Part shown: one piece after another, positions 14,517 through 42,082 of the stretch | Layout of the letters: the number at the start of each line of letters is the position of its first letter | How positions within the stretch are numbered: position 1 is the first letter of the stretch | Virus record (IMG/VR): IMGVR_UViG_2933073624_000001 | Coordinates: 36,643-100,642 of that record | DNA length: 64,000 bases | Source of the DNA: a virus | Taxonomy: Duplodnaviria; Caudoviricetes | Direction: 5' to 3' (one strand) | Position numbers and translations under genes: made by a program | The notes under the pieces: generated by a model | The model's database searches: none | The model's input: only the letters and a program-made list of their open reading frames with translations | Told to the model about the DNA's origin: nothing

Positions 14517-17500
14517 ATGGCCGACATCACGATCACCCACACACGGCCCGACGGCACGACCCTGGGCGGCTCCAGCAAGGGAGACGGCGTCTACGAGATC
14601 GTCCGGCAGCACGGCTTCAAGTACTCCAGGAATGTCGGCATCTACATCCGAGGCTCCCGCGACAAGGAGGCGCAGCACTGGAGGATCAACGGCGCGGCCG
14701 AAGCCCTGCGCGCGGCCGGCCACACGGTCGAGGTCGAGATCAACGAGGAGGACGAGCGCTCGTTCGCCGAGATCGAGGCCGCCCGCGAGGAACGCGCCGA
14801 GGACCGCGCCGAGCGGTTCGCCGACCGCGCGGACCGGGCCTCCGCCGAGTCCAACGCCCGATACGAGCGGGCAAAGGACATCGGCCGCCGCTTCGAGTTC
14901 GGGCAGCCGATCCTCGTCGGCCACCACTCGGAGCGCCGCGCCCGCCGGGACCAGGAGCGTATGCACGACAACATGCGCAAGTCGATCGAAGAGCAGGACA
15001 AGGCCGGGTACTGGTCCGACCGGGCCGAGGCCGCCGGCTCGTACAAGGAGCGCCGGAACGACACGTACGTCACCCTGCGGCGCCTGGAGAAGCTGGGCGC
15101 CGACCTCCGCAGGCAGCAGCGGTACCACGCGGAAGCTGTCGCGAAAGGCTGCGACTCCGCCGACCGGCACGCGCGCGAGATCCGGGACCTGGAGAAGGAG
15201 ATCGCGCACTGGGAGGAGGTCGTCGAGAAGGCGAAGGGGGATGGCGTGAAGGTCTGGGGCCCGGAGGACTTCGCCCCGGGCGACTACGTCATGTACTACG
15301 GCACGTCCTGGTATCAGGTGTCACGGGTCAACCCGAAGACGCTGAGCGTCGCGTGGAACCTGCGGCTTGAGCCCAAGGCGGTGATGAGCCTGGAGGACGC
15401 CACCGACGGTGGCCGGACCTGGACGCACTCGGCCAGCTACACCAACGTTCATGCCCGCTGCCCCGAGGAAGCGATGAACGCCTTCCTGGCCGACGGGAAG
15501 GTCCCCGGCCGCAAGGCGGCCCACGCCGCCTCGGAGAAGCAGCCAGCGGCAGCGGTACGCGAGGCCCAGGCCGCGAAGCCGAAGCCGAAGAAGCCGACCA
15601 GCGACCCGAAGGTGCCGAAGAAGCTGCTGGTGGCGTTCCAGCAGCTGGGCACCGTGGCCGAGGTGACGTGGCTCAACGGCGGCAGCCGCCCGCACAAGGA
15701 CTTCCAGCAGGTGACGATCGCGCCGCCCGACGGAAAGCAGTTCCCCCGCTCGGTCTGGTCCCCGGCCCTCCAGGAGGAGTTGGCCCGCATCCTCGGGGAG
15801 CAGGGCTACGAGCTGCACGGCAGCGACTGGGAGTGGAACCGCAGCCGACAGGGCTACATCCGAGCGCTGAGGCCCAAGCCGCAGAAGACGCCCGAGCCGG
15901 AGCAGCCGACCACACCGACCGAGGAGCAGCCGGCTCCGCCCGCCAGCGAAGAGCCCCCGGCCACCGGCCCGGAGGGGAAGCCGGAGCCGGAGGAGTCGAC
16001 CGCCCCGGCCGAGGAGCCCCCGGCCGACGAGCCGGGGGAGACCCCGGAAGGGGGCGGAGAGCCCCAGCAAGGGGGCGAAAACACCGCCCTGACCTGCGAT
16101 TCTTCCGGATCCACCCGGAACCACAAGATCGCCTCACGCGTTGGTAATAGTGACTACCCACTAACACCATCCACCCAGGAGGCCCCGGTGACCGAGACCG
16201 AAAAGTACGGACGCCCCCTCACCCCTCGCGAGCGCAAGGCCGCCCAAGCGGCCGAGCTGCGTGAGCGCGCCGCCCAGCGAGAGGAGGTCGAGCGCACGGC
16301 CGAACTGGACACGGCCTACCGGGCGTACGTGGACGAGGGCATCGCCATGACCGACGGTGTTTACGTCCCGCTCGACTTCCAGGCCTGGGCCGCCACCCTG
16401 GGCGCCCCCCTGGTTGCAGCCGCGGCCGCCGAAGAGCCGACCGCCGACCAGGAGCAGGAGACGACCGCGCCCCCCGAGGTCGCCGAGGTCGCCGCCGAGC
16501 CCCAGCCGGAGGAGAAGGCCCCGGCCCAGGAGGCGCCCGCCAAGAAGGCTCCGGCCGAGAAGAGGCCCGCCCGGAAGGCCCCGGCGAAGAAGGCGCCGGC
16601 GAAGAAGACCCCGGCCCCGAAGGAGACGGCCGCCCCGCAGAAGGCCGCCGGGCTCAAGACCGTCCACAAGCGGGTGCCGGTCGACCGGATCGACCGCGAC
16701 CCCTCCCAGCCGCGCCAGGTCTTCGACCAGGAGAAGCTGGAGGAACTGGCCGGTTCGATGAAGCGGCTCGGCCAGCTCCAGCCGGTCAGCGTCCGCTACG
16801 TCCCCTCGACCAAGCGCTACGTGCTCGTCATGGGCGAGCGCCGGTGGCGGGCCGCCCAGCTCGCCGAGATCGTCGAACTCGACGCGGTCGTTACCCACGG
16901 CTTCGAGGAAGGGGACCGCGAGATCCTGGCCCGTCAGGTCGCCGAGAACGTCGGCCGGGCGGACATGACCCCGATGGAGGAGGCCGAGTCGTTCAAGCGG
17001 CTGGTCGACGCCGAGTACACCATCGACCAGGTCTCCGAGATGGTCGGCAAGTCGGCGAGCTACATCGGCTGGCGCATCGATCTCCTGCGACTGTGCGACT
17101 CCGCCCGCGAGGCCGTGAGCAAGGGGCACCTGACCGTCGGCCTCGCCTGGTACGTGTCCCTGCTCAACACCGACAACCAGATGCGGTTCCTCGTCCGGCA
17201 CACCCGGGGCGAGTTCAAGAGCGTCCGGGACGCCGAGGCCTTCGCCCAGGCCGCTCGCGCGGAGGAGAAGCGAGTGGAGGAGCAGGGCTCCTTCTTCGTC
17301 CTCTCCGAGGAGGCCGCCACCGACAGGGGCGGGCAGGACGCGCTGCCCGGCTCCCTGGACATCCCGGAGTCGGAGCGCGAGAAGATCATGGGCGATCGCG
17401 CCAAGCTCGTCGGCCGGATCGACAAGCTGAGCATCGCCGGCGAGATCCTGTCCGAGCTGGCGAACGCCGACCCGGAGACCCTGGCGCTCCTGCTCGCCGG

Positions 17501-17660
17501 TACCCCCGGCGGAGTCCCCGGGCACGCGCAGCGGATCGAGCACCTGCGGGAGCTGACCCTGCGGGCCACGAAGAACCTCCGCCAGGCCCAGGCCATCGCG
17601 GCCGTACGGGCCTCGGGCATTCAGATCGACCCGGAGGCCGTCGCCATGCCCGCCGCATAG
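14517..17660 (+). CDS. DUF3560 protein read through in frame into ParB
   Basis: GQPILVGHHSERRARR DUF3560 signature; no stop before ParB. Confidence 0.7.
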   Translation: MADITITHTRPDGTTLGGSSKGDGVYEIVRQHGFKYSRNVGIYIRGSRDKEAQHWRINGAAEALRAAGHTVEVEINEEDERSFAEIEAAREERAEDRAERFADRADRASAESNARYERAKDIGRRFEFGQPILVGHHSERRARRDQERMHDNMRKSIEEQDKAGYWSDRAEAAGSYKERRNDTYVTLRRLEKLGADLRRQQRYHAEAVAKGCDSADRHAREIRDLEKEIAHWEEVVEKAKGDGVKVWGPEDFAPGDYVMYYGTSWYQVSRVNPKTLSVAWNLRLEPKAVMSLEDATDGGRTWTHSASYTNVHARCPEEAMNAFLADGKVPGRKAAHAASEKQPAAAVREAQAAKPKPKKPTSDPKVPKKLLVAFQQLGTVAEVTWLNGGSRPHKDFQQVTIAPPDGKQFPRSVWSPALQEELARILGEQGYELHGSDWEWNRSRQGYIRALRPKPQKTPEPEQPTTPTEEQPAPPASEEPPATGPEGKPEPEESTAPAEEPPADEPGETPEGGGEPQQGGENTALTCDSSGSTRNHKIASRVGNSDYPLTPSTQEAPVTETEKYGRPLTPRERKAAQAAELRERAAQREEVERTAELDTAYRAYVDEGIAMTDGVYVPLDFQAWAATLGAPLVAAAAAEEPTADQEQETTAPPEVAEVAAEPQPEEKAPAQEAPAKKAPAEKRPARKAPAKKAPAKKTPAPKETAAPQKAAGLKTVHKRVPVDRIDRDPSQPRQVFDQEKLEELAGSMKRLGQLQPVSVRYVPSTKRYVLVMGERRWRAAQLAEIVELDAVVTHGFEEGDREILARQVAENVGRADMTPMEEAESFKRLVDAEYTIDQVSEMVGKSASYIGWRIDLLRLCDSAREAVSKGHLTVGLAWYVSLLNTDNQMRFLVRHTRGEFKSVRDAEAFAQAARAEEKRVEEQGSFFVLSEEAATDRGGQDALPGSLDIPESEREKIMGDRAKLVGRIDKLSIAGEILSELANADPETLALLLAGTPGGVPGHAQRIEHLRELTLRATKNLRQAQAIAAVRASGIQIDPEAVAMPAA
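16087..16164 (+). promoter_or_regulatory. class-A cassette copy 4 (inside the ORF)
   Basis: GGAAC-N17-CGTTG-GTAATAGTGACTACCCACTAA then AGGAGG and GTG 16188. Confidence 0.8.
16188..17660 (+). CDS. parB: ParB/RepB/Spo0J-family protein with histone-like PAKK region
   Basis: QPR..F...L.ELA.S...GQLQPV, GERRWRAA, EN..R.DMTPMEEA, HTH. Confidence 0.85.
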   Translation: MTETEKYGRPLTPRERKAAQAAELRERAAQREEVERTAELDTAYRAYVDEGIAMTDGVYVPLDFQAWAATLGAPLVAAAAAEEPTADQEQETTAPPEVAEVAAEPQPEEKAPAQEAPAKKAPAEKRPARKAPAKKAPAKKTPAPKETAAPQKAAGLKTVHKRVPVDRIDRDPSQPRQVFDQEKLEELAGSMKRLGQLQPVSVRYVPSTKRYVLVMGERRWRAAQLAEIVELDAVVTHGFEEGDREILARQVAENVGRADMTPMEEAESFKRLVDAEYTIDQVSEMVGKSASYIGWRIDLLRLCDSAREAVSKGHLTVGLAWYVSLLNTDNQMRFLVRHTRGEFKSVRDAEAFAQAARAEEKRVEEQGSFFVLSEEAATDRGGQDALPGSLDIPESEREKIMGDRAKLVGRIDKLSIAGEILSELANADPETLALLLAGTPGGVPGHAQRIEHLRELTLRATKNLRQAQAIAAVRASGIQIDPEAVAMPAA

Positions 17661-21180: not shown

Positions 21181-21630
21181 ATGATCGAAGTCATGGTGTG
21201 CTGCAACGACCGCGACCGCTACCCGGCCTGGATCGACCCCACCGACCACCGCGACGGATTCGTGAAGCCCTGGTTCGATCTGGAGACCGTCCAGCGCATC
21301 GCAGAGGACAGCCAGGCGGAAGCCGCCGAGTTCGGACACGGCGGCGTCGACACCGTCCACGTCATCACCGGCCAGATCGACGGCCAGGACCGGCCGCTGG
21401 TCCTGAACATCTGCTGGATGTACCTGGACGGCGAGAAGCACCAGAAGGCTGTTGAGAACGTCGAGCGCAACGCGGACGGCCTGTACGCGGTCGGCGGCTA
21501 CGACTGGAACTGGTACATGCTCGACGACCTGTTGAACCCGGTGATCCCGCCTCGGGTCGACCCGGCGATCCCGACGCAGGTGAAGCGGGAGATCCTGCCG
21601 CCCTTCCCCGGCCAGCGCACCAACGGATGA
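21181..21630 (+). CDS. hypothetical protein (paralog of 19637..20572)
   Basis: DGFVKPWF, DTVHVI, GLYAVGGYDWNW. Confidence 0.7.
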   Translation: MIEVMVCCNDRDRYPAWIDPTDHRDGFVKPWFDLETVQRIAEDSQAEAAEFGHGGVDTVHVITGQIDGQDRPLVLNICWMYLDGEKHQKAVENVERNADGLYAVGGYDWNWYMLDDLLNPVIPPRVDPAIPTQVKREILPPFPGQRTNG

Positions 21631-21677
21631 CCCCCACACCCCTCCATCACCCCGACCCGACCGTACGAGGACGTCAC

Positions 21678-22610
21678 ATGACCATTCAGCCCGTCCAGGC
21701 CCCGCCCCTCCTGACCTCCGGTGGCCCACAGGGCCTGTGCGAGGGAGCGCTGATCCTCACCCGCCGCGGCATCGTCCCCATCGAGGACATCGCCGCCGGC
21801 GAGGAGGTGTTCACCCACCGGCGCCGCTGGCGGCCGGTCGTGGCCGTCACCTCGCAGACCGCCCCGACGGTGAAGGTCCACTGCGTCACCCTGCCCGGCG
21901 GCCTGCCGGTCACCGCCGACCAGTGGCTGCTCACCCGGAACGCCCGCGTCCTGCTCGAAAGCGACGCCACCGCAGGGATGTCGAGCGCCCGGTGGACCAA
22001 GGCCCGGGATCTGGTCGAAGGCGACCGGGTCGCCTCGCCGCTCGACTTCGGGCAGCCGCTCCCGCTGCCCGAACTGCCCGCCGCCCTCGCCGGGACCGAC
22101 CCGGCCGACATCATTCGCATCGCGGCGCAGATGATCGGCCTCAAGGGCAAGGCGGGCACGGCCCTGTGCCCGGAGCTGGCCGGCTGGCTGGAAACGCACT
22201 TCGGACCGTACGGCGCCGGGCGCCACTTCCCGGCCTGGGCGGTCACGATGCCCGAGGAGCTTCGCCGAGCCTTCCTCGGCGGCCTGGTCGACCTCTCCCC
22301 GGAACGCCAGAAGTGCGCGGTGGCCATGCACTCCAAGAGGTTCATGACCGGCCTGCGGCTGCTGGTCTGCTCCCTCGGCTACGCCGCCGGGCTCGCCTCC
22401 GCCAAGGGGAAGGGAGGAAGCCGGGCGTGGCCGCTGAGCTGGGCGCCGACCGGCGGCCGGCGCCCCGACTATAACGGGTCGCGGTGGCACTCGGTGGCCC
22501 GGGTCGAACGGGGCCCGGTGTCCACGGTGTTCCAGCTGCACGTCATTGAGGACGAGTCCTGCGTCGCCGACGGCCTCACGGTCGCGGCCCCTCTCCCGCC
22601 GGGCAGGTAG
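21678..22610 (+). CDS. free-standing intein-like (Hint + degenerate LAGLIDADG) protein
   Basis: GALILTRRGIVPIEDI..GEEVFTH...WRPV, W.KARDL.EGD, RAFLGGLVD, VFQLHV.EDES.VADG. Confidence 0.75.
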   Translation: MTIQPVQAPPLLTSGGPQGLCEGALILTRRGIVPIEDIAAGEEVFTHRRRWRPVVAVTSQTAPTVKVHCVTLPGGLPVTADQWLLTRNARVLLESDATAGMSSARWTKARDLVEGDRVASPLDFGQPLPLPELPAALAGTDPADIIRIAAQMIGLKGKAGTALCPELAGWLETHFGPYGAGRHFPAWAVTMPEELRRAFLGGLVDLSPERQKCAVAMHSKRFMTGLRLLVCSLGYAAGLASAKGKGGSRAWPLSWAPTGGRRPDYNGSRWHSVARVERGPVSTVFQLHVIEDESCVADGLTVAAPLPPGR

Positions 22611-27005: not shown

Positions 27006-27659
27006 ATGAGCGACACCACTCCGAATGTCCAGTACACCCCGTACGCGGAAGGGCGCTTCGCCCCGGTCCTGCCCTACGCCCCGACCGGCTACCTGTTCAC
27101 CGTCCCCGGCAGCTTCCCCGACGACACTCCCTCCCACCTGAACCTGACCGACCGGGACATGGCGGTCTACTGGACGTACGGACAGTGGGAGGTCCGCGAC
27201 CTCACCGCCGAACGCCGAGTCTGGGGCATCGGCCGAAGCCGCAGGACCGCCGTCGGCCTCGCCTTCCTGGAGATCGCCCGCAAGCGCCGCCAGGAAGCCC
27301 GGGAGGCCGCCGAACGGCGCCTGGCCGTCGGCCTGGAGGCCGTCCCCCCGTACGCGGTGGAGATCACCGGAGACGTCACCCTCATCTGCACCCCCGAGGC
27401 GACCGGCGTCTTGAAGTCCCTGGAGCTCGACGACAACGGCCCGACCCTCTACCACGTCCACGACACCGACGGCGGAGACCCGTACACGATCCGCCACGCC
27501 CCCCGGCTGTCCCTCCGGCAGACCCTGACCGGCGTCCTGCACGTCCGGTGCGGCTGCGACCCCGAGGACGCCACCCGGTTCGAGAACGAGACCGACGCCC
27601 TCAAGTGGGCCACCCGGGGCCTGACCTTCTTCTGGCCCTGCGCGAACAACCCCGCCTGA
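27006..27659 (+). CDS. hypothetical protein
   Basis: GGAAGG RBS, ATG 27006. Confidence 0.7.
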   Translation: MSDTTPNVQYTPYAEGRFAPVLPYAPTGYLFTVPGSFPDDTPSHLNLTDRDMAVYWTYGQWEVRDLTAERRVWGIGRSRRTAVGLAFLEIARKRRQEAREAAERRLAVGLEAVPPYAVEITGDVTLICTPEATGVLKSLELDDNGPTLYHVHDTDGGDPYTIRHAPRLSLRQTLTGVLHVRCGCDPEDATRFENETDALKWATRGLTFFWPCANNPA

Positions 27660-27876
27660 CCGCTCGTCCCCTCGGGGCCGCGACCGCCCACCGGTCGCGG
27701 CCCCTCCGGCGTTCTCAGGCCTTCAACGGCCCCAGCTCACTACCCTCCGCGCGGGCCGAACGAGGCGGCCACAGGCCCGTCCAGGGCCGCCGCCCGCCCG
27801 CCCCCACACTGATCACACAGAGTGGTGTATCATCACGACACGTGAGTGGCTGCCGGTAACGGCGTGGCCGGTCCCG

Positions 27877-27950
27877 GCGCTGGTGGTGCAATTGCAGCAC
27901 GCCCGACTTCCGGTCGGGAGGTCCAGGTGCAAGTCCTGGCCGGCGCTCCA
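27877..27950 (+). tRNA. tRNA-Gly(TCC), non-canonical D/T loops, encoded CCA
   Basis: acceptor GCGCTGG/CCGGCGC + T73 + CCA; D-stem GTGC/GCAC; anticodon arm CCCGA-CTTCCGG-TCGGG; T-arm CCAGG-TGCAAGT-CCTGG. Confidence 0.88.
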
Positions 27951-27953
27951 TGC

Positions 27954-27989
27954 AGAGCCCCCGGGGTGGTGAGCCCCCCGGGGGCTTTC
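27954..27989 (+). terminator. hairpin after tRNA
   Basis: AGAGCCCCCGGGG...CCCCGGGGGCTTT. Confidence 0.65.
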
Positions 27990-28119
27990 GTGTACCCCCG
28001 CCCCGTCACGCCTGACGGTAGTGATCCGAACACGCTGTGTGCCTGTTCGGCTACCATCCCCGCCGGTCAGCACCACGACCGCCCGTCCCGCCGTGACGAC
28101 CCCTTCAAGGAGCACGCCG

Positions 28120-29532
28120 ATGTTCCACGGCTCCATCCCATCCGATATGTGCCGCATCGTCCGCGAACACGTCTCCCTGTGGAACGACGTGACCGACGTC
28201 TACAACGTGTGCTGCGGGAACTTCACCGTCGAGAAGACCATCGCGTCCCTCGGGAAGAACCTGCACTCCTGCGACGTGCTGATGTACTCGACCGCCATCG
28301 GCCGGTACCTCGCCGGCGACCCGATGCCCCTGGTGTTCACCCCGACCGCCGAAGCCGAGTTCCCCTGGGCGATGGAGTACCACGAGACGCCCGCCCAGCA
28401 GCTCGCCACCATGCTCCTGTGCACCCGCCTCGCCCCGCTCATGGGCAAGAAGGAGACGCACGTCTACTGGTCGAAGATGCGCAAGGCGTACGAGCAGCAG
28501 TGGCCCGACCTCCACGCCAAGACCGTCGCCAAGGTCGAGGCGGCCGCCGAAGTCCTCAAGCTCGCCTCGTACTCCGCCGAGGACGCCCTGACGTGGGTCG
28601 ACAAGATCCCGCCCGGCGCCGGCGTCGTGTCGTACCCGCCGTTCCACGGCGCCGGGGCCGCGTTCGTCCGCGACTTCGCGAAGCTGGAGGAGATGTTCGA
28701 GTGGACTCCCCCCGAGTTCACGATCATGCAGGACCCCGAGCTGGAGTACCTGATCCAGCGGATCACCGACCGCGACCACTGGCTCCTGGGCACCAACGAG
28801 GAAGTCCCGGAGATGGCCGAGTTCCTGCGCGGCCGGACCCGCACCACGAACCGCGGCATCCCGATCTACGTCTACGCGAACTCCGGCCCCATGCGTCTGG
28901 TCGAGCCCCACCAGCGCACCGAAGCATGGCCCGGCCCCCACCTGGGCGACGAGGAGATCGGCGACAGCATCAGCCTCGCCGTCCTGTCCGGCGGCCAGTT
29001 CGCCGCCCTGCGCTCCGCCTACATGAACGCCAACATCCGGCCCGGCTCCGAATCCCTCGGCGTCGCCGTCCTGGTCGACAAGAAGCTCGTCGGCGTCTTC
29101 GCCTACTCGTGGGCCCCGACCCTGGGGAACTGGGGCGCGCACCTGCCGCAGCAGCCCACGGTCTACATGCTGTCCGACTTCCCGGTCTCCACCAGCCGCT
29201 ACGCCAAGCTGTCGAAGCTGATCGTCATGGCCGCCATCAGCCGCGAAGCCCAGCTCCTCACCTGGCGCCACGGCCACCGCCGATACCAGTCCCTGGCCAC
29301 CACGGCGTTCACGAAGCGCCCGGTGTCGATGAAGTACCGCGGCGTCCTCCGCCTCCTCAAGCGCGATCAGAAGGACGTGCTCAAGGAGGACTGGGCCAAG
29401 GGCATCGACCCGAACGACTCGTACTACGCCCAGCAGTACCAGCTCCAGTACGGAGCGCCCTTCTCCGGCAAGCCGCTCGCCGACGTGCTCCGCGAGTGGA
29501 AGAAGCGATACGGCAAGGACGTGAAGAAGTGA
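28120..29532 (+). CDS. putative DNA-modification protein: adenine-MTase-like N-terminus + GNAT/Mom-like C-terminus
   Basis: AAGGAG RBS; VYNVCCGNFT (motif I-like), SYPPF (motif IV-like); C-terminal VLVDKKLVGVFAY..YMLSDF..KLSKL..T.AFT..PVSMKYRG. Confidence 0.6.
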   Translation: MFHGSIPSDMCRIVREHVSLWNDVTDVYNVCCGNFTVEKTIASLGKNLHSCDVLMYSTAIGRYLAGDPMPLVFTPTAEAEFPWAMEYHETPAQQLATMLLCTRLAPLMGKKETHVYWSKMRKAYEQQWPDLHAKTVAKVEAAAEVLKLASYSAEDALTWVDKIPPGAGVVSYPPFHGAGAAFVRDFAKLEEMFEWTPPEFTIMQDPELEYLIQRITDRDHWLLGTNEEVPEMAEFLRGRTRTTNRGIPIYVYANSGPMRLVEPHQRTEAWPGPHLGDEEIGDSISLAVLSGGQFAALRSAYMNANIRPGSESLGVAVLVDKKLVGVFAYSWAPTLGNWGAHLPQQPTVYMLSDFPVSTSRYAKLSKLIVMAAISREAQLLTWRHGHRRYQSLATTAFTKRPVSMKYRGVLRLLKRDQKDVLKEDWAKGIDPNDSYYAQQYQLQYGAPFSGKPLADVLREWKKRYGKDVKK

Positions 29533-30425
29533 AGACCGACATCCGCACCGGCGACCCCCGCGGCCTCAAGCTCCTCGACCTCAACGCCCGGTTCATGCGA
29601 CACGAGCAGTTCCAGCAGCTCGTCGCGAACGTCCGCCGCGACCAGGCCCTCACCTCCACCCCGTTCGTCTGGCACGACACCGAGACCGGCGACCGCATCG
29701 TCCTGTCCGGGAACCACCGCACCAAGGCCGCCATCGAAGCCGGAATCGAAGAGATCACCTGGCTGGAGACCAGCGAACGACTCACCGAGTCCCAGCGCCT
29801 CGCCATCCAGCTCTCGCACAACTCCATCGCCGGCGAGGACGACGTCGCGATCCTCAAGACCCTGTACGAGAAGATTGACGACCTCGACCTGCGCCAGTAC
29901 GCCGGCCTCGACGACGCCACCCTGGAACTCCTCGCCGACCTCGACAGCCCCTCACTCGGCGAAGCCAACCTCAGCTTCCAGACCCTCGCGATCGTCTTCC
30001 TCCCCGACGACCTCAAGGAAGCCCAGGACGTCATCCGCGACGCCCTCGGCCTCGCCGCCTCCTCCGACGCCGTCTGGGTCGCCTCCCTCCGCCAGTACGA
30101 CCAGGCCATGGCCGCCCTCGACCTCGCCTCCAAGAGCGCCGACGTCACCAACGTCGCCACCGCCTTCGGCCTCATCCTGGAGTCCTTCAAAGACCACGCC
30201 GACGAGCTCGTCGACTCCTGGTTCGACCGCGACACCGGCGAACCCAAGCACCACGGCATGGCCCCCCTCCTCACCCTCTTCCACACCGACGCCATGCCCA
30301 CCAAGGGCGCCGCCATCGTCGAGAAGGCACTACAGCAGGCCGTAGCCCGAGGCGACGTCCCCGCCGAGCACCGCCACCGCGCCCTCGAACTGTGGGCACG
30401 CCAGTACCTCGACACCCCCGCCTGA
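29529..30425 (+). CDS. ParB/Srx N-terminal domain protein
   Basis: GTGA coupling; NARFM, VLSGNHRTKAA, QLSHNSIAG.DD. Confidence 0.8.
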   Translation: MKTDIRTGDPRGLKLLDLNARFMRHEQFQQLVANVRRDQALTSTPFVWHDTETGDRIVLSGNHRTKAAIEAGIEEITWLETSERLTESQRLAIQLSHNSIAGEDDVAILKTLYEKIDDLDLRQYAGLDDATLELLADLDSPSLGEANLSFQTLAIVFLPDDLKEAQDVIRDALGLAASSDAVWVASLRQYDQAMAALDLASKSADVTNVATAFGLILESFKDHADELVDSWFDRDTGEPKHHGMAPLLTLFHTDAMPTKGAAIVEKALQQAVARGDVPAEHRHRALELWARQYLDTPA

Positions 30426-30430
30426 CCGCC

Positions 30431-31069
30431 ATGAGCACCAACAAGCCCCCGATCACGCTCAGTCCAACACTCGACCCATGGGAGCCACAGGACGGCGAGA
30501 GCGCCCGAAGGCACGGCCAGTTCATCACCTACCGCGACATCGGCCGGACCCGGACGCTACAGAAGGCCGCCGAAGCGCTACAGATCCACCCGGTCAACGT
30601 CAGGAAGGCGGCGGCCCAGTTCCGGTGGCGGGAGCGCGCCGAGGCCTGGGACCGGCACCTGGACCGGCTGTACGAGGCGGCATGGGTCGAGGAGCGGCGG
30701 AAGGCGGCCGAGAGCGACGCCCGGATCCTGGGCGCGGTCGTCGGCAAGCTCGCCCAGCGGCTGGGCACGCTGAACGCCGCCGAGATGACGATCGGGGACT
30801 TCACCCGCATGCTCGACGTCGCCATGCGGCACCGCCGTGTCCTGTTCGGTGACCCCGAGGCGACGATCGCGGTCACCGGGCCCGGCGGGAACCCGCTCGC
30901 GGTCCAGCTGGCGGAGTTCGCGCAGATGCCGGCGGAGCAGCGGCGCGCGCGGATCGAGGACCTGGCGGCCGCCGTGCAACGCCGCACCCAGGCGCTGCAC
31001 GGCGGTGACGACGACGACGGTGAGGGCCCGGCCGACGGCCCGAACCGGGATGAGGACGACGTGCCGTAA
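30431..31069 (+). CDS. terminase small subunit-like HTH protein
   Basis: GES...F..YRD.G..R.L..AA, W.ERA.AWD; immediately upstream of terL. Confidence 0.65.
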   Translation: MSTNKPPITLSPTLDPWEPQDGESARRHGQFITYRDIGRTRTLQKAAEALQIHPVNVRKAAAQFRWRERAEAWDRHLDRLYEAAWVEERRKAAESDARILGAVVGKLAQRLGTLNAAEMTIGDFTRMLDVAMRHRRVLFGDPEATIAVTGPGGNPLAVQLAEFAQMPAEQRRARIEDLAAAVQRRTQALHGGDDDDGEGPADGPNRDEDDVP

Positions 31070-32652
31070 TGAGCGCAGTGCTGACCGCCGAGGACCTGGC
31101 GCACTACGACGACGCCGAGGTGTACCAGCGGCTCGCCGCCGCGAAGGCGGCGCTGGCCCGCGACCTGCTGTGTGATCCGCTCACCCTGGCTCTGGGCCTG
31201 GACCGGACCTATCGGCTGCGCCCGCACCTGCGGGTGATCGGCAATGCCCTGGTGGGCCTGTCGAACGGCGAGTACGACCGGCTGATGGTGTGGACGCCGT
31301 CGCAGGTCGGGAAGTCGTCCCTGGCGGCCGAGTGGTTCCCGTTCTGGTGGCTGTGCCTGCACGGCGATGACCGGGTCGCGGTGACGTCGTACAGCGACGA
31401 CCTGGCCATGCGGCGCGGTAAGACGATCCGCCGGTACATCAACGAGTACGGCGCGGAGTACGACCTGGAGCTCCTCGCCGGCTCGGCGGCCGCGCAGGAC
31501 TACGACACCACCGCGGGCGGCGGCGTGCGGTCGGTGTCGATCGGGTCCGGCCTGACCGGCTTCGACGTGAACGTTCTGGTGGTGGACGACCCGCACAAGG
31601 ACCGTGGCGAGGCGGAGAGTCCCCGGCTGCGCGAGCACGTCCATGACTGGTGGTCGTCGGCCGCCCTCAAGCGGTTGCAGCCCGACCGGAACGCGGTGGT
31701 CGCGATGCAGACGCGCTGGCACCCGGACGACTTCTGCGGCCGGCGCCTGGCGGAGGAGGGACGCCTGGAGGAAGGCGGCCGGTGGAAGGTGGTCCACCTG
31801 CCTGCCATCGCGAACCCGTCGAAGTTCGGGCCCGACCCGATGGGCCGCCAGGACGGCGACCCGCTGACGCACCCGAAGATCCCCACGAGGCAGCGCAAGA
31901 AGCTCCTGGGGTGGTGGGCGGACGTGAAGAAGACGTCCACCGTCCGGGACTGGCACGCCATGGCCCAGGGCGACCCGCAGCCGTCCGAAGGCGCCCTGGT
32001 ATCCCGGGACCTGCTGCGCCTGATCCGGGACGGGGCGACGAAGGTCGAGCCGCAGAAGATCGCGGTCGCGATCGACCCGTCCGGCGGCGGCCGGGACACC
32101 GCGGGCGTTATCGGCGGCTTCCTCGGCGCCGACAAGCGGGTGTGGATCACGCACGACCGGTCTGCGGCGATGTCGTCGGCCGACTGGTCCCGGGCGGCCT
32201 GCATGCTGGCGTACGAGACGGACGCGGCGATCATCTACGTCGAGTGGAACTTCGGCCGGGACATGGCCGTCCTCGCCCTGGAAACGTCGTGGGAGACGCT
32301 CCAGCGCGAGGGCGCGATCCCCCCGGGGCACCTGATGCCGATGATCGACCCCGTACGGGCCAAGCAGGGCAAACTGCTGCGGGCGGAACCCGTCGCCCAG
32401 CAGATGGTCCAGGACCGGGTCCGGCTGCGCGGCGCGTTCCCGGACCTGGAGAACGAGTGGGCGACGTGGCAGCCGACCGACCCCGACAGCCCCGGCCGTA
32501 TCGACGCCTCCTGCATCCTCGTGTACGGCCTGATCCCCGAGGCCAACAAGGGCGCCATCGTCCACGCCCCGAAGCCGACCGCACCCCAGCCCGGCGGTAT
32601 GGCCCGGCCCGGTGGCGCGGCGGCGCTGTACGGCCGACGCATCGGGAAGTGA
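31069..32652 (+). CDS. terL: terminase large subunit
   Basis: PSQVGKS Walker A, VLVVDDPHKD Walker B, QTRWH.DD, AIDPS nuclease, SPGRIDA. Confidence 0.9.
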   Translation: MSAVLTAEDLAHYDDAEVYQRLAAAKAALARDLLCDPLTLALGLDRTYRLRPHLRVIGNALVGLSNGEYDRLMVWTPSQVGKSSLAAEWFPFWWLCLHGDDRVAVTSYSDDLAMRRGKTIRRYINEYGAEYDLELLAGSAAAQDYDTTAGGGVRSVSIGSGLTGFDVNVLVVDDPHKDRGEAESPRLREHVHDWWSSAALKRLQPDRNAVVAMQTRWHPDDFCGRRLAEEGRLEEGGRWKVVHLPAIANPSKFGPDPMGRQDGDPLTHPKIPTRQRKKLLGWWADVKKTSTVRDWHAMAQGDPQPSEGALVSRDLLRLIRDGATKVEPQKIAVAIDPSGGGRDTAGVIGGFLGADKRVWITHDRSAAMSSADWSRAACMLAYETDAAIIYVEWNFGRDMAVLALETSWETLQREGAIPPGHLMPMIDPVRAKQGKLLRAEPVAQQMVQDRVRLRGAFPDLENEWATWQPTDPDSPGRIDASCILVYGLIPEANKGAIVHAPKPTAPQPGGMARPGGAAALYGRRIGK

Positions 32653-33367: not shown

Positions 33368-34243
33368 ATGGGTCGGGGAGATCTCACGGACGAGCAGTGG
33401 GCCGCGCTGGAACCGTTGTTGCCGAAGGGCACGAAGGCGGGCCGGCCGCCCGTCTGGTCTCGGCGGCGGTTGATCGACGGCATACGGTTTCGGGTCCGGA
33501 CCGGTGTTCCGTGGCGGGACGTGCCCGTCGAGTACGGGCCGTGGGGCCGGGTCTACGACTTGTTCCGCCGGTGGCAGCGGACCGGAACCTGGCACCGGAT
33601 CATGACCCGGCTGCAGTCCTTGGCCGACGCGAAGGGTGTGATCACGTGGGACCTGAGCGTCGACTCCACGGTCTGTCGTGCTCATCAGCACGCGGCTGGG
33701 GCCCGCAAGCAGGGGGGCCTGCAGAAGGAACCGCCGGGCGGTGTCTTCACCGAGCCCGATGATCACGGACTGGGTCGCTCGCGCGGCGGGTTCACCACCA
33801 AGTTGCACCTGGCTGTCGAGCAGGGTCAGAAGCCCATGTCGATCTTGATCACGGCCGGGCAGCGCGGGGACTCGCCGCAGTTCGAACCCGTGCTCAACAA
33901 GGTCCGAGTGCCCCGCATTGGGCCGGGTCGGCCGCGCGTCCGGCCCGATCGCGTGCGGGCTGACAAGGCGTACGCCTCCCGCAAGAACCGCGCCTACCTG
34001 CGGCGCCGCGGGATCCGCTGCACCATCCCGGACAAGGCCGACCAAGCACGCAACCGCCGAAAGCTCGGCTCCCAGGGCGGCCGGCCGCCGCACTTCGACC
34101 CGGTCGACTACCGCGAACGTCACGCGGTCGAGTGTGGGATCAACCGCCTCAAGAGGAACCGCGCCGTCGCCACGCGATACGACAAGCTCGCGGTCCGCTA
34201 CGAGGCGACCGTCCTCGTCGCGGCCATCAACGAGTGGCTGTGA
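33368..34243 (+). CDS. IS5-family (IS427-like) transposase
   Basis: DLTDEQW..LEPLLP, SVDST, GRSRGG.TTKLH, ADKAY, RYDKLA..Y. Confidence 0.95.
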
Positions 34244-36474: not shown

Positions 36475-36825
36475 CTGTAGGACCTCGCCCCCCCTGGTTC
36501 CGCCTTGGACGAGATCAGCTTCTCAGGAACTGATCACTGGACGCACAAGGATTCCGTGCGAGCAGTCCCGAACCTCGTGAAGTGCGTTCCGGGGGAGCGG
36601 CGGCCGCGAGGTGCGTACTCCCGCGCCGTCCGGACGCTGCATCGGCATGACCGCCGCGCCCCGGCCCGGCGCCCTCCCCGGCCTGCCGCCAGCAGGAGGG
36701 CACCGTCACGGCCTCTGAGGTGACCGCCCGCCCACGATAGCCGGGGCGGTCAGTGGATTTCCAAGGGGCGATCTGAGGTGCCTTGGAGAGGAAGATCTCT
36801 GAGCTCGATTAGGGGTTAGCGCAAT

Positions 36826-40406: not shown

Positions 40407-40617
40407 CCTGACCGACGACACCGAAGAGCCGTACATCCATCTCACGTCCGAGACGGAGCAGCCGTGTCCCGAGTGCGGGAAGCAGGCCTTCGGGATCGTG
40501 ACGGTGTACCTCGACCCCGGCGACGGCACCAAGGGGAAGGTGATCGGCGGGTGGGCGCTGTGCGGGAACTGCCACCACGCCCCGCACCCGGTGATGGACA
40601 GGGGTAGCGATGGCTGA
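40399..40617 (+). CDS. small Zn-ribbon protein
   Basis: CPECG...CGNC. Confidence 0.55.
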   Translation: MADLTDDTEEPYIHLTSETEQPCPECGKQAFGIVTVYLDPGDGTKGKVIGGWALCGNCHHAPHPVMDRGSDG

Positions 40618-42082
40618 CCGTGACGGGCAGCTCGACCAGGGCGAGGAGGAGTTCGCCCGGGTCGTTGCCGCCATGCTCGACGAGACCGCCGACGAGTTCG
40701 CGGCCGCCGTCGCCGACGCCACCGAACTGGTCGCCGCCCGTTTCTCGGTGAGCCGGATCGCCCGCATGTGGGGCAACCGCACCCGCCGCCTCGTCCGTCA
40801 GCTCCTGGGGACCGCCGACACCGCGGCGGCGGCCGCTGCCGAGGACATCGGCGCCGACCTGCCCGACGGCTGGGACGACCTGCCTGCCCGCTACGACGAC
40901 AACACGCTGCCCGAGCCGATGCGGCAGTACGTGGAGGTCACCGAGCACCTGCTGCGCGCGGTCGGCGACCGCCTGGCGGACGTCGCCCGTGCTGAGCTGG
41001 CGGAGGGCATCGCGGCCGGTGAGGACGTCGACCAGCTACAAGGCCGGCTGCGGGCGGCGTTCGCCCGCGACGGCGCCCACCTCGGGCCCGTCCGGGAGCA
41101 GCGCATCGCCCGCACCGAGGCGACGAGGGCGTGGAACACCGCGACGCTGGAAGCCGCCCGTGCCGCGACCGGCCCCGACCGGCCGATCGTGAAGCAGTGG
41201 GTCACCCGGCACGACAACCGGGTGCGGACCGAGCACAGCCGGGTGGACGGCCAGCTCCGGCCGCTGGGTGAGCCGTTCACCGTCGCCGGTGTCGCGATGC
41301 AGACCCCCGGCGACCCGACGGCTCCGGCCGGCCTCGTCATCAACTGCCGCTGTCGCCTGGCAGTGGCCCCTGAACTTCGCGCCGCTGCCTCGGAATCTCA
41401 GGCGAGCCTCGGGGCGAGATTTTCGGAACAGAGGTGGAGCGGTATGCACACCGTGAACGTCGGCCTTCGGCAGTTCCACGGGACCCGGGGCCGGCCCAGC
41501 TACAAGAAGTACCACCCCAGCGGACGCAACAGCGTGGGCAACGGCCGCACCCGCCACGAGAACGGCGGGCTCCTCGGGAGCAACCGCTACTCCGAAGAAG
41601 AGCACTCGGCAGTGCTGGAGAGCTACACGATCGACGGCTACGACGACATGAACCGGTGGCTCCGCCACCGCGGCGAGCCGGACTACGTCACCGAGGAAGA
41701 GGTCCAGCGGCAGATCTCGGTGCTCTCCGACCTCATCAACGCCCAAGAGCCGACCACGACCGAGCTGACCCTGTACCGGGGCATGCGCGGCCAGTTCCTC
41801 GAACTGAACGAGGGCGACACGTTCCACGACAAAGGCTTCGTCTCCACCAGCTCCTCGGAGAGCGTCCCCCGCAGGCGCGTGACGAAGAAGGGCGGCATGT
41901 ATTTCACGATCACCGTGCCCAAGGGTGCCCAGGTCCTCGACGTGGCATCGGTCGGAGCGCGGGCCGCCGAAGACGAAGTGATTCTGCCCCCGGGCACGCA
42001 GTACCGGGTGAGGAGCGTCGCGCCCCACGACGACCCCGACAGGCCGGGCGTGCACTACCAGCTGGAGGTCATCAATGTCTGA
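40610..42082 (+). CDS. MuF-like minor head protein fused to VIP2-like ADP-ribosyltransferase
   Basis: RIARTE, KQWVT..D.RVR.EH...DGQ, INCRC; then YT..GY..MN.WLR, LYRG, GFVSTS, EDEVILPPG. Confidence 0.85.
   Translation: MADRDGQLDQGEEEFARVVAAMLDETADEFAAAVADATELVAARFSVSRIARMWGNRTRRLVRQLLGTADTAAAAAAEDIGADLPDGWDDLPARYDDNTLPEPMRQYVEVTEHLLRAVGDRLADVARAELAEGIAAGEDVDQLQGRLRAAFARDGAHLGPVREQRIARTEATRAWNTATLEAARAATGPDRPIVKQWVTRHDNRVRTEHSRVDGQLRPLGEPFTVAGVAMQTPGDPTAPAGLVINCRCRLAVAPELRAAASESQASLGARFSEQRWSGMHTVNVGLRQFHGTRGRPSYKKYHPSGRNSVGNGRTRHENGGLLGSNRYSEEEHSAVLESYTIDGYDDMNRWLRHRGEPDYVTEEEVQRQISVLSDLINAQEPTTTELTLYRGMRGQFLELNEGDTFHDKGFVSTSSSESVPRRRVTKKGGMYFTITVPKGAQVLDVASVGARAAEDEVILPPGTQYRVRSVAPHDDPDRPGVHYQLEVINV

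Follow-up and report, generated by a model that had tools for sequence, protein, structure and literature searches.

Mom, an enzyme of phage Mu with the GNAT fold, takes glycine from Gly-tRNAGly and attaches it to the N6 position of adenine in double-stranded DNA, and the adduct then rearranges to 6-NcmdA (Silva et al., PMC13219725). According to that article all host tRNA-Gly isoacceptors serve Mom, its authors suggest that mainly the acceptor end is read, and its Discussion mentions that some GNATs have tRNA as a substrate. As presented there, tRNA-dependent DNA modification is so far known for Mom only, and with host tRNAs; in the main text of PMC13219725 the terms "encoded tRNA", "methyltransferase" and "fusion" have 0 occurrences, and there is no passage on Streptomyces phages. 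Glycyl-tRNA is also used off the ribosome in the staphylococcal cell wall, where the non-proteinogenic (NP) tRNA-Gly species NP1-NP3 of S. aureus and S. epidermidis are the glycine donors for FmhB, FemA and FemB. These NP tRNAs carry the pairs A-U, U-A and A-U at 49-65, 50-64 and 51-63 and have TGC or TGT in the T loop, and by the account of PMC7826273 such extra, dedicated tRNAs have so far been reported in staphylococci only. Here we describe a tRNA-Gly(UCC) gene and the gene next to it, which encodes a fusion of a Dam-like and a GNAT-fold domain, in a 64,000-nucleotide stretch of viral DNA from a Streptomyces prophage (Duplodnaviria; Caudoviricetes; positions 36,643 to 100,642 of IMG/VR record IMGVR_UViG_2933073624_000001), referred to as the window. 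From its comparison with relatives and with host tRNAs we consider it probable that this tRNA is a virus-encoded non-proteinogenic tRNA-Gly that acts as the private glycyl donor of the adjacent enzyme for DNA modification.

The coordinates of all features are collected in Table 1. ARAGORN returns the tRNA-Gly(tcc) as the sole tRNA in the window, and it is the only tRNA of the entire 100,642-nt virus record. The match to Rfam family RF00005 (27877-27947) reaches 56.6 bits (gathering score 29; E-value 1.5e-09), which places the RNA among the tRNAs, and a covariance model built from its own relatives (R1, described below) scores it at 82.8 bits. The acceptor stem reads G1-C72, C2-G71, G3-C70, C4-G69, U5-G68, G6-C67 and G7-C66, followed by U73 and an encoded CCA, and all 21 pairs of the cloverleaf are standard, with U5-G68 as the one G-U. 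The anticodon stem (CCCGA/UCGGG) closes a 7-nt loop, CUUCCGG, that holds U33 and the anticodon UCC and has GG at positions 37-38. A D stem of GUGC/GCAC carries the loop AAUUGCA, which lacks the GG dinucleotide; set against the host-type loop AAUGGUA it reads U18 G19, so that the one remaining G could still pair with C56. In the T arm (CCAGG/CCUGG) the first three pairs are C49-G65, C50-G64 and A51-U63, and the T loop is UGCAAGU with G55. The bacterial glycine identity set listed in Table 1 of PMC9976931 consists of U73, G1-C72, C2-G71, G3-C70, C35 and C36, and the window tRNA has 6 of the 6. The original prediction, made from the letters alone, had noted these intact identity elements and the encoded CCA together with the altered D loop, the T loop TGCAAGT, the A51-U63 pair, the GG at 37-38 and the pairing of all stems with a single G-U; each of these readings was borne out by the sequence and the Rfam alignment.

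We examined whether the tRNA accompanies the enzyme gene elsewhere. The enzyme belongs to a family of at least 354 protein clusters that carries the NCBI/UniRef name "putative antirestriction adenine methyltransferase" and occurs in phages of Actinomycetota, Bacillota and other phyla. A tblastn search of a phage collection with the enzyme gave 15 records, 10 from Mycobacterium and 5 from Gordonia phages. The cassette is thus present in isolated phages: the homologue of Mycobacterium phage Megabear is preceded directly by an annotated tRNA-Gly(tcc), detected by both ARAGORN and R1, and has a ParB-like gene 3' of it. In Gordonia phage Soos there is a degenerate copy that ARAGORN missed and that R1 scores at 48.9 bits; it retains the same acceptor arm, its anticodon loop reads CCCCCGG and its T loop has 8 nt. 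The general tRNA model was blank for the Megabear and Soos records, which is an effect of its prefilter and not an absence of the tRNAs. With an alignment of 28 members, the confirmed relatives numbered at least 540 in viral and 284 in genomic sequences; 80 loci from each set, taken with 1.5 kb of flank, were sampled. ARAGORN was run on these 160 loci, 155 of which had enough upstream sequence, and in 66 of the 155 it found a same-strand tRNA ending at most 400 nt 5' of the enzyme gene, at a median gap of 108 nt. The anticodons at these loci were tcc (29), ccc (25), acc (10) and gcc (1), with 4 odd loops of NCC type, and across about 680 kb of related loci ARAGORN detected no tRNA for any other amino acid.

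The covariance model R1, built from 53 linked tRNAs, recovers copies that ARAGORN missed. Among 147 distinct enzymes, compared in a FastTree phylogeny from which six truncated loci were left out, R1 placed a tRNA directly upstream in 73 and nearby in 7; none was found within 1.5 kb in 66, and in 1 the flank is absent. Three related proviruses that are 96-100% complete have one tRNA each, the linked tRNA-Gly. Each of 162 loci has a ParB-like relative, which lies directly 3' of the enzyme gene in 154.

Variants of this arrangement were seen at some loci. Four carry tandem tRNA-Gly-like pairs 5' of the enzyme gene, and the tandem copies often differ in anticodon, for example CCC followed by ACC. 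One enzyme clade has a tRNA-Gly near the enzyme gene on the opposite strand, and the three examples look near canonical, with a D-loop GG, a UUCGA T loop and A37. Away from the enzyme family, one Streptomyces genome (G003) holds three near-identical extra tRNA-Gly(UCC) genes with a UGCAAGG T loop at separate chromosomal sites. No enzyme gene was detected by tblastn within 1.5 kb of these three tRNAs, and Pfam searches of the open reading frames adjoining one of them (L195) were uninformative; the copies may belong to other elements or mark attachment sites.

The linked tRNAs form a coherent RNA family. In an alignment of 53 relatives 97.9% of the cells of the cloverleaf are paired and compensatory changes occur in 17 of the 21 pairs, values that 0 of 500 shuffles reach; the pairs 1-72, 2-71, 3-70 and 53-61 are invariant. 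This pairing and covariation indicate that the tRNA is neither a chance structure nor a product of decay; the original prediction had argued against simple decay from the intact stems of the window copy. We then counted conserved positions in 72 distinct linked tRNAs. The acceptor end GCG...CGC-U is kept in 71 of 72, C35 in 71 and C36 in all 72, so that the most conserved part of these RNAs is the glycine identity set, and the conserved set is exactly the one tabulated in PMC9976931. Other positions are freer. The wobble position 34 is U in 34, C in 23, A in 14 and G in 1; U33 is lost in 30 of the 72, the D-loop GG is absent from 37 and U55 from 18, and 64 have at least one gross deviation. 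The UGC T loop is found in 10 distinct linked tRNAs from several separate lineages of the enzyme tree, and in 10 of these 10 the D-loop GG is absent. Within the 8-member near clade of the window, for which the alignment was read by eye, the D-loop GG is missing in 7, A51-U63 and G38 are present in all 8 and G55 is present in 5; the original prediction had named a lack of conservation in relatives as a refuting result, and the deviations do recur there.

For a host control we used 15 distinct canonical tRNA-Gly sequences from five genomes that contain related loci, none of them the window's own host. The glycine identity elements are likewise common to these 15, and all 15 have the D-loop GG, the TTCRA T loop, A37A38 and G49-U65, with G51-C63 in 14. 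EF-Tu affinity is set by the first three T-stem pairs, and proteogenic tRNA-Gly carries G49-U65, C50-G64 or U50-A64, and G51-C63, as stated in PMC7826273. In the 72 linked tRNAs G49-U65 occurs in 3 and G51-C63 in 2. The combination C32/G38 is present in 63 of the 72 linked tRNAs and in 0 of the 15 host tRNAs. It was considered as a further mark against ribosomal use, but we place no weight on it, since PMC7826273 discusses pairing between 32 and 38 as normal for some tRNA-Gly. Codon usage in the prophage was also compared: GGA makes up 5-9% of glycine codons in the 40-100 kb bins, which represent the prophage, versus 7-11% in the bins before 40 kb, and no translational need is visible from these figures. 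Diversion from translation is suggested by the recurrence of the deviations in relatives; the near absence of the pairs that tune EF-Tu binding; the freedom of the wobble base, including A34, and the frequent loss of U33; the lack of a GGA excess; and the fixed place before one enzyme gene. The proposal that the tRNA is chargeable but diverted from translation accordingly gains support from the comparison with relatives and host tRNAs, at the level of sequence.

The likeness to staphylococcal cell-wall tRNAs, which the original prediction had also invoked, holds in part and is an analogy only. As far as the NP tRNAs are described in PMC7826273, both are extra tRNA-Gly(UCC) species, and the window tRNA, like them, would be kept as a substrate of glycyl-tRNA synthetase and would serve a GNAT-fold aminoacyl-transferase off the ribosome. 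They share a T loop in which TGC replaces TTC, leaving no site for pseudouridine 55, as well as the A51-U63 pair and an altered D loop. The likeness fails at 49-65 and 50-64, which in the window are strong C-G pairs and not A-U and U-A; the host-type pairs G49-U65 and G51-C63 are nonetheless absent from the window tRNA. The window tRNA is, moreover, encoded by a virus, its neighbour is a Dam-like/GNAT fusion and not a Fem protein, and the acceptor is likely to be DNA rather than lipid II.

The enzyme gene starts 170 nt 3' of the tRNA and is preceded by a ribosome binding site, aaggag, at 28107-28112. Its product matches the Pfam families PF22555 ("Phage DNA adenine methylase-like domain 1", 3.7e-100) and PF22559 ("Phage GNAT-like domain", 8.2e-56). 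Both domains are carried by 119 of 120 listed homologues, the exception being a 300-residue protein (P0011) with PF22555 only. No NCBIfam model matched the enzyme, and a search against PDB sequences gave 0 matches at E<=1. An AlphaFold2 model calculated with an alignment has a predicted local distance difference test (pLDDT) score of 87.9. Its N domain (residues 1-256) superposes on E. coli Dam (2g1p_A) with a Z-score of 13.4, on T4 Dam (1yf3) with 12.8 and on DpnM (2dpm) with 12.7, over about 199 residues (199 for E. coli and T4 Dam), and it has the class I methyltransferase fold with the DNA-binding insert of Dam. The catalytic motif of Dam-type N6-adenine methyltransferases is (D/N/S)PP(Y/F/W). 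After strand 4 the window enzyme has SYPPF and the family (Y/F)PPF, with an aromatic residue before PP, so that neither the enzyme nor the family consensus carries the Dam-type motif. The N domain thus shares with the Dam enzymes its fold and a PPF motif after strand 4, and differs from them in the Y/F before PP and in the fusion to a GNAT domain; methyl transfer by it is putative.

Folded alone, the GNAT domain reaches a pLDDT of 89.1, and its top VIA match is Mom of phage Mu (8bv8_A; Z 11.1, root mean square deviation 3.6, 151 residues aligned). GNATs bind CoA through a Gly-rich CoA(-phosphate) motif, Q/RxxGxG/A, and this motif after strand 4 is absent from both the enzyme-family consensus and the Mom consensus. 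We also considered the enzyme as a member of the Mom family proper and rejected this assignment, all Pfam and hhalign sequence tests being non-significant. Both proteins are phage enzymes with a GNAT fold; a glycine donor in the form of tRNA-Gly and adenine in double-stranded DNA as the target have been shown for Mom and would hold for the window enzyme, as would a role against restriction. Mom differs in being a single domain that uses host isoacceptors and has no sequence relationship to the window enzyme, which is fused to a Dam-like domain, always accompanied by a ParB-like gene and usually by its own deviant tRNA.

Since Mom is a true Gly-tRNA-dependent enzyme, we searched 80 loci of the Mom family (PF25680) with the tRNA model. 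In 3 of the 80 a tRNA-Gly(UCC) scoring 69-74 bits lies 125-280 nt 5' of mom; further Mom loci have one degenerate tRNA-like RNA with an ACC loop just 3' and one partial copy, and the only other tRNA at the 80 loci is a tRNA-Ala. With 3 of 80 upstream, most Mom genes do without a linked tRNA; the pairing nonetheless recurs with an enzyme that depends on Gly-tRNA.

The anatomy of the window tRNA, its linkage to the enzyme gene, the pattern of conservation and the protein folds are the observed basis for regarding the tRNA as a private glycyl donor. From them we infer the charging, the poor use in translation, the donor role, the DNA target and the chemical product. Host glycyl-tRNA synthetase would charge the tRNA, because the glycine identity set is kept, and the glycylated tRNA would be a poor client of EF-Tu and the ribosome, leaving it as the private donor of glycyl groups to the enzyme encoded downstream. 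The Dam-like domain may bind DNA and present an adenine, while the GNAT domain would take the glycyl group off the CCA end of the tRNA, as Mu Mom does with host Gly-tRNA. Shortly before packaging, the ParB-like partner could assist in loading the enzyme onto phage DNA or in spreading it there, and the modified phage DNA would evade host restriction. DNA-modifying enzymes with a ParB partner have a precedent in the phage T-dioxygenases, which are described as depending on a ParB-like regulator (PMC13229309). A broader proposal, to which we attach even weight for and against, is that in many phage lineages across several bacterial phyla a private tRNA outside the genetic code, stripped to the features required by glycyl-tRNA synthetase, is the dedicated cofactor for DNA aminoacylation, in which a disabled Dam-like domain flips the adenine, glycine is transferred by the GNAT domain and a clamp of ParB type targets the phage DNA at packaging; the old S-adenosylmethionine pocket would then perhaps hold the glycyl-adenosine end.

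Several observations weigh against a private glycyl donor. Mild deviants are common: 8 of the 72 linked tRNAs have no gross deviation, 35 keep the D-loop GG and 54 keep U55. The strong C49-G65 and C50-G64 pairs mean that weak binding of EF-Tu is not predictable from the sequence of the window tRNA alone. Co-transcription of the tRNA and the enzyme gene is only putative, with a hairpin between them. Of the 147 enzymes 66 lack a tRNA within 1.5 kb, and 50 of these 66 form one well-supported Streptomycetaceae clade, outside which a tRNA accompanies 80 of 96 enzymes. In five provirus records of that clade, each 17-21 kb long, there was no R1 match at E<=0.1, and the enzyme can evidently work without a linked tRNA. 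The relationship of the GNAT domain to Mom is also qualified: ordinary acetyltransferases lie within 1 Z of it (SbzI, 10.7; 1y9k, IAA acetyltransferase, 10.5), Mom ranks only 25 in a Foldseek search with the whole-protein model, the enzyme does not match the Mom family PF25680 at E<=10 (Mu Mom itself scores 2.4e-75), and hhalign gives a probability of 0.25% for the GNAT domain against Mu Mom and of 0.9% (E 0.062) against a 24-member Mom alignment.

Two candidate RNAs from the tRNA-less clade were set aside. An R1 match of 10.8 bits in one record (G010) has an E-value of 0.69 and is not credible. A hunt for hidden tRNAs within 20 kb on either side of the enzyme gene in two genomes of this clade, with filters off, turned up nothing beyond a tRNA-Thr(CGU) and a weak minihelix candidate, 38 nt long and of acceptor/T-arm type (GCGCCGG...CCGGCGC-U), about 11.7 kb 5' of the enzyme gene. 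This minihelix (E 0.3) is unproven and was not used as evidence; an exact-pattern search across the collected loci gave no other match.

Other explanations for the tRNA were weighed against the same data. That it is an ordinary translational tRNA, boosting the decoding of GGA or GGG in infection with its deviations as the tolerated noise that phage tRNAs commonly show, we regard as improbable. The RNA has a good score against the tRNA family, a 7-nt anticodon loop with U33 and UCC, the CCA end and a full cloverleaf, all of which suit translation and the last two of which it shares with translational phage tRNAs, and 42 of the 72 linked relatives keep U33, with the D-loop GG and U55 retained as counted above. 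Unlike translational phage tRNAs, this type is single, always specific for glycine and fixed beside one enzyme gene, as the sole tRNA of its phage; it is free at the wobble position and lacks the conserved loop bases and the EF-Tu-tuning pairs that are near universal in the host tRNA-Gly. GGA is not enriched in the prophage, and the minimum-energy fold can shrink the anticodon loop to 3 nt through C32-G38 and U33-G37. A decaying tRNA pseudogene or attachment-site remnant, for which the off-consensus D and T loops would speak, is in our view very improbable: the four stems pair, compensatory changes are spread over most pairs in the relatives, and the gene lies in mid-prophage among plus-strand genes ahead of terS and terL, not at the end of the element.

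It is unlikely, if somewhat easier to credit, that the tRNA is a decoy or replacement against defences that attack tRNA-Gly, such as GNAT toxins and toxSAS, or that the neighbouring GNAT domain acts on the tRNA itself and modifies it in place of DNA. Conservation centres on the acceptor end and C35C36, the parts that such enzymes, like the synthetase, would recognise, FaRel2 is described as picking tRNAGly through the acceptor stem (PMC11559606), GNAT toxins are described as acetylating aminoacyl-tRNAs (PMC9177977), and tRNA-modifying GNATs are on record. A replacement tRNA should remain competent in translation, however, and a decoy would not call for a constant gene order alongside a Dam-like/GNAT fusion, a ParB-like gene and packaging genes; the alignment of the Dam-like domain with DNA adenine methyltransferases over its full length points to DNA as a second substrate. 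We give little credence to a cis-acting tRNA-like element that, instead of carrying an amino acid, would signal processing by RNase P or stabilisation, or would sense glycine charging for control of the late operon. The fixed position 5' of the operon at a short median gap would suit such an element, as would relatives too degenerate for ARAGORN (Soos, with its 8-nt T loop) and the strong hairpin directly after the window tRNA. The RNA from 27877 to 27995 folds at -73.3 kcal/mol (z -4.95), a value that 0 of 200 shuffles attain, and the hairpin looks, in this predicted fold, like a terminator or processing element that a simple terminator scanner missed because its T run is weak; a simple scan of 27500-28300 found no sigma-70-like promoter. 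A processing signal, on the other hand, requires neither U73, C35 and C36 at 71-72 of 72 nor an encoded CCA, and the three loci with a tRNA on the opposite strand do not fit a cis-acting role. We retain the private glycyl donor as the preferred reading.

Table 1. Positions of the features discussed; entries without a locus handle refer to the window.
Feature	Position	Strand	Basis
tRNA-Gly(UCC), CCA encoded	27877-27950	+	ARAGORN, Rfam RF00005, R1 model, sequence
G+C-rich hairpin then CUUUCGUGU	27953-27992	+	RNA fold; between tRNA and enzyme gene
Fusion enzyme, 470 aa, N-terminal Dam-like + C-terminal GNAT fold	28120-29532	+	Pfam, phrog_7858
ParB-like gene, start overlaps enzyme-gene stop	29529-30425	+	phrog_7405 3.5e-62
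Terminase small subunit (terS)	30392-31069	+	phrog_6299 3.4e-17
Terminase large subunit (terL)	31069-32652	+	phrog_38 2e-73
1047-aa ParB-type protein	14517-17660		DUF3560 + ParB_N + HTH_ParB
Free-standing Hint-domain gene	21627-22610		
C5 cytosine methyltransferase, 628 aa	22785-24671		
IS4/IS5-type transposase	33368-34243		DUF4096 + DDE_Tnp_1
Mu F-like minor head protein fused to ADP-ribosyltransferase domain	40610-42082		PF04233 + PF03496
tRNA-Gly or degenerate copy beside Mom genes, viral contigs	L252:1300-1370, L255:1306-1376, L257:1224-1294, L278:2125-2191		
Tandem tRNA-Gly-like pairs 5' of enzyme gene	L025:1271-1419, L036:1282-1427, L037:1261-1421, L092:1272-1420		
tRNA-Gly near enzyme gene, one enzyme clade	L044:1364-1434, L053:151-222, L086:1231-1301	opposite to enzyme gene	
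Extra tRNA-Gly(UCC) copies of Streptomyces genome G003	L177:1500-1570, L186:1500-1570, L195:1501-1572		
Minihelix candidate (not used as evidence)	L199:8106-8143		

Around the tRNA nearly all genes lie on the plus strand, as judged from third-position GC content, and a thiolase-type host gene stands at the start of the record (judged by eye). The ParB-like gene also matches weaker ParB-like or nuclease PHROGs (ParB-like, 1.6e-09 to 7.5e-04), and its homologues in phage records are annotated as "ParB-like nuclease domain protein"; Pfam ParB_N did not match its product at E<=10. On the 5' side of the tRNA are methyltransferases, a C5 methylase and a giant DUF3560/ParB protein, so that this prophage has two genes of ParB type. 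The C5 methylase has two Pfam matches far apart (residues 35-122 and about 523-611) and adjoins the free-standing Hint-domain gene. Right after the terminase genes lies the transposase, and the prophage may be interrupted there. The protein encoded after the minor head protein fusion is 1029 aa long and has a weak 2'-5' RNA ligase-like match.

Literature searches led to the Mom papers only and gave no description of the enzyme family or of a phage tRNA that serves a DNA modifier, with the limit that supplements may hold lists of homologues. If the broader proposal above is correct, no virus would have been known before to encode a non-proteinogenic tRNA, and DNA hypermodification that depends on tRNA would have arisen a second time, independently of Mom. 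A virus that brings a deviant tRNA-Gly of its own for a DNA-modifying-type enzyme would link the staphylococcal NP tRNAs to the chemistry of Mom. Some "phage tRNA genes" would then have been misread as translational. The natural variation of these tRNAs offers a map of what the synthetase needs as opposed to what the translation machinery needs, and the RNA-enzyme pair could serve as an orthogonal aminoacyl-carrier system. For the phages themselves, the number of viral and genomic relatives would point to a widespread and uncharacterised DNA modification.

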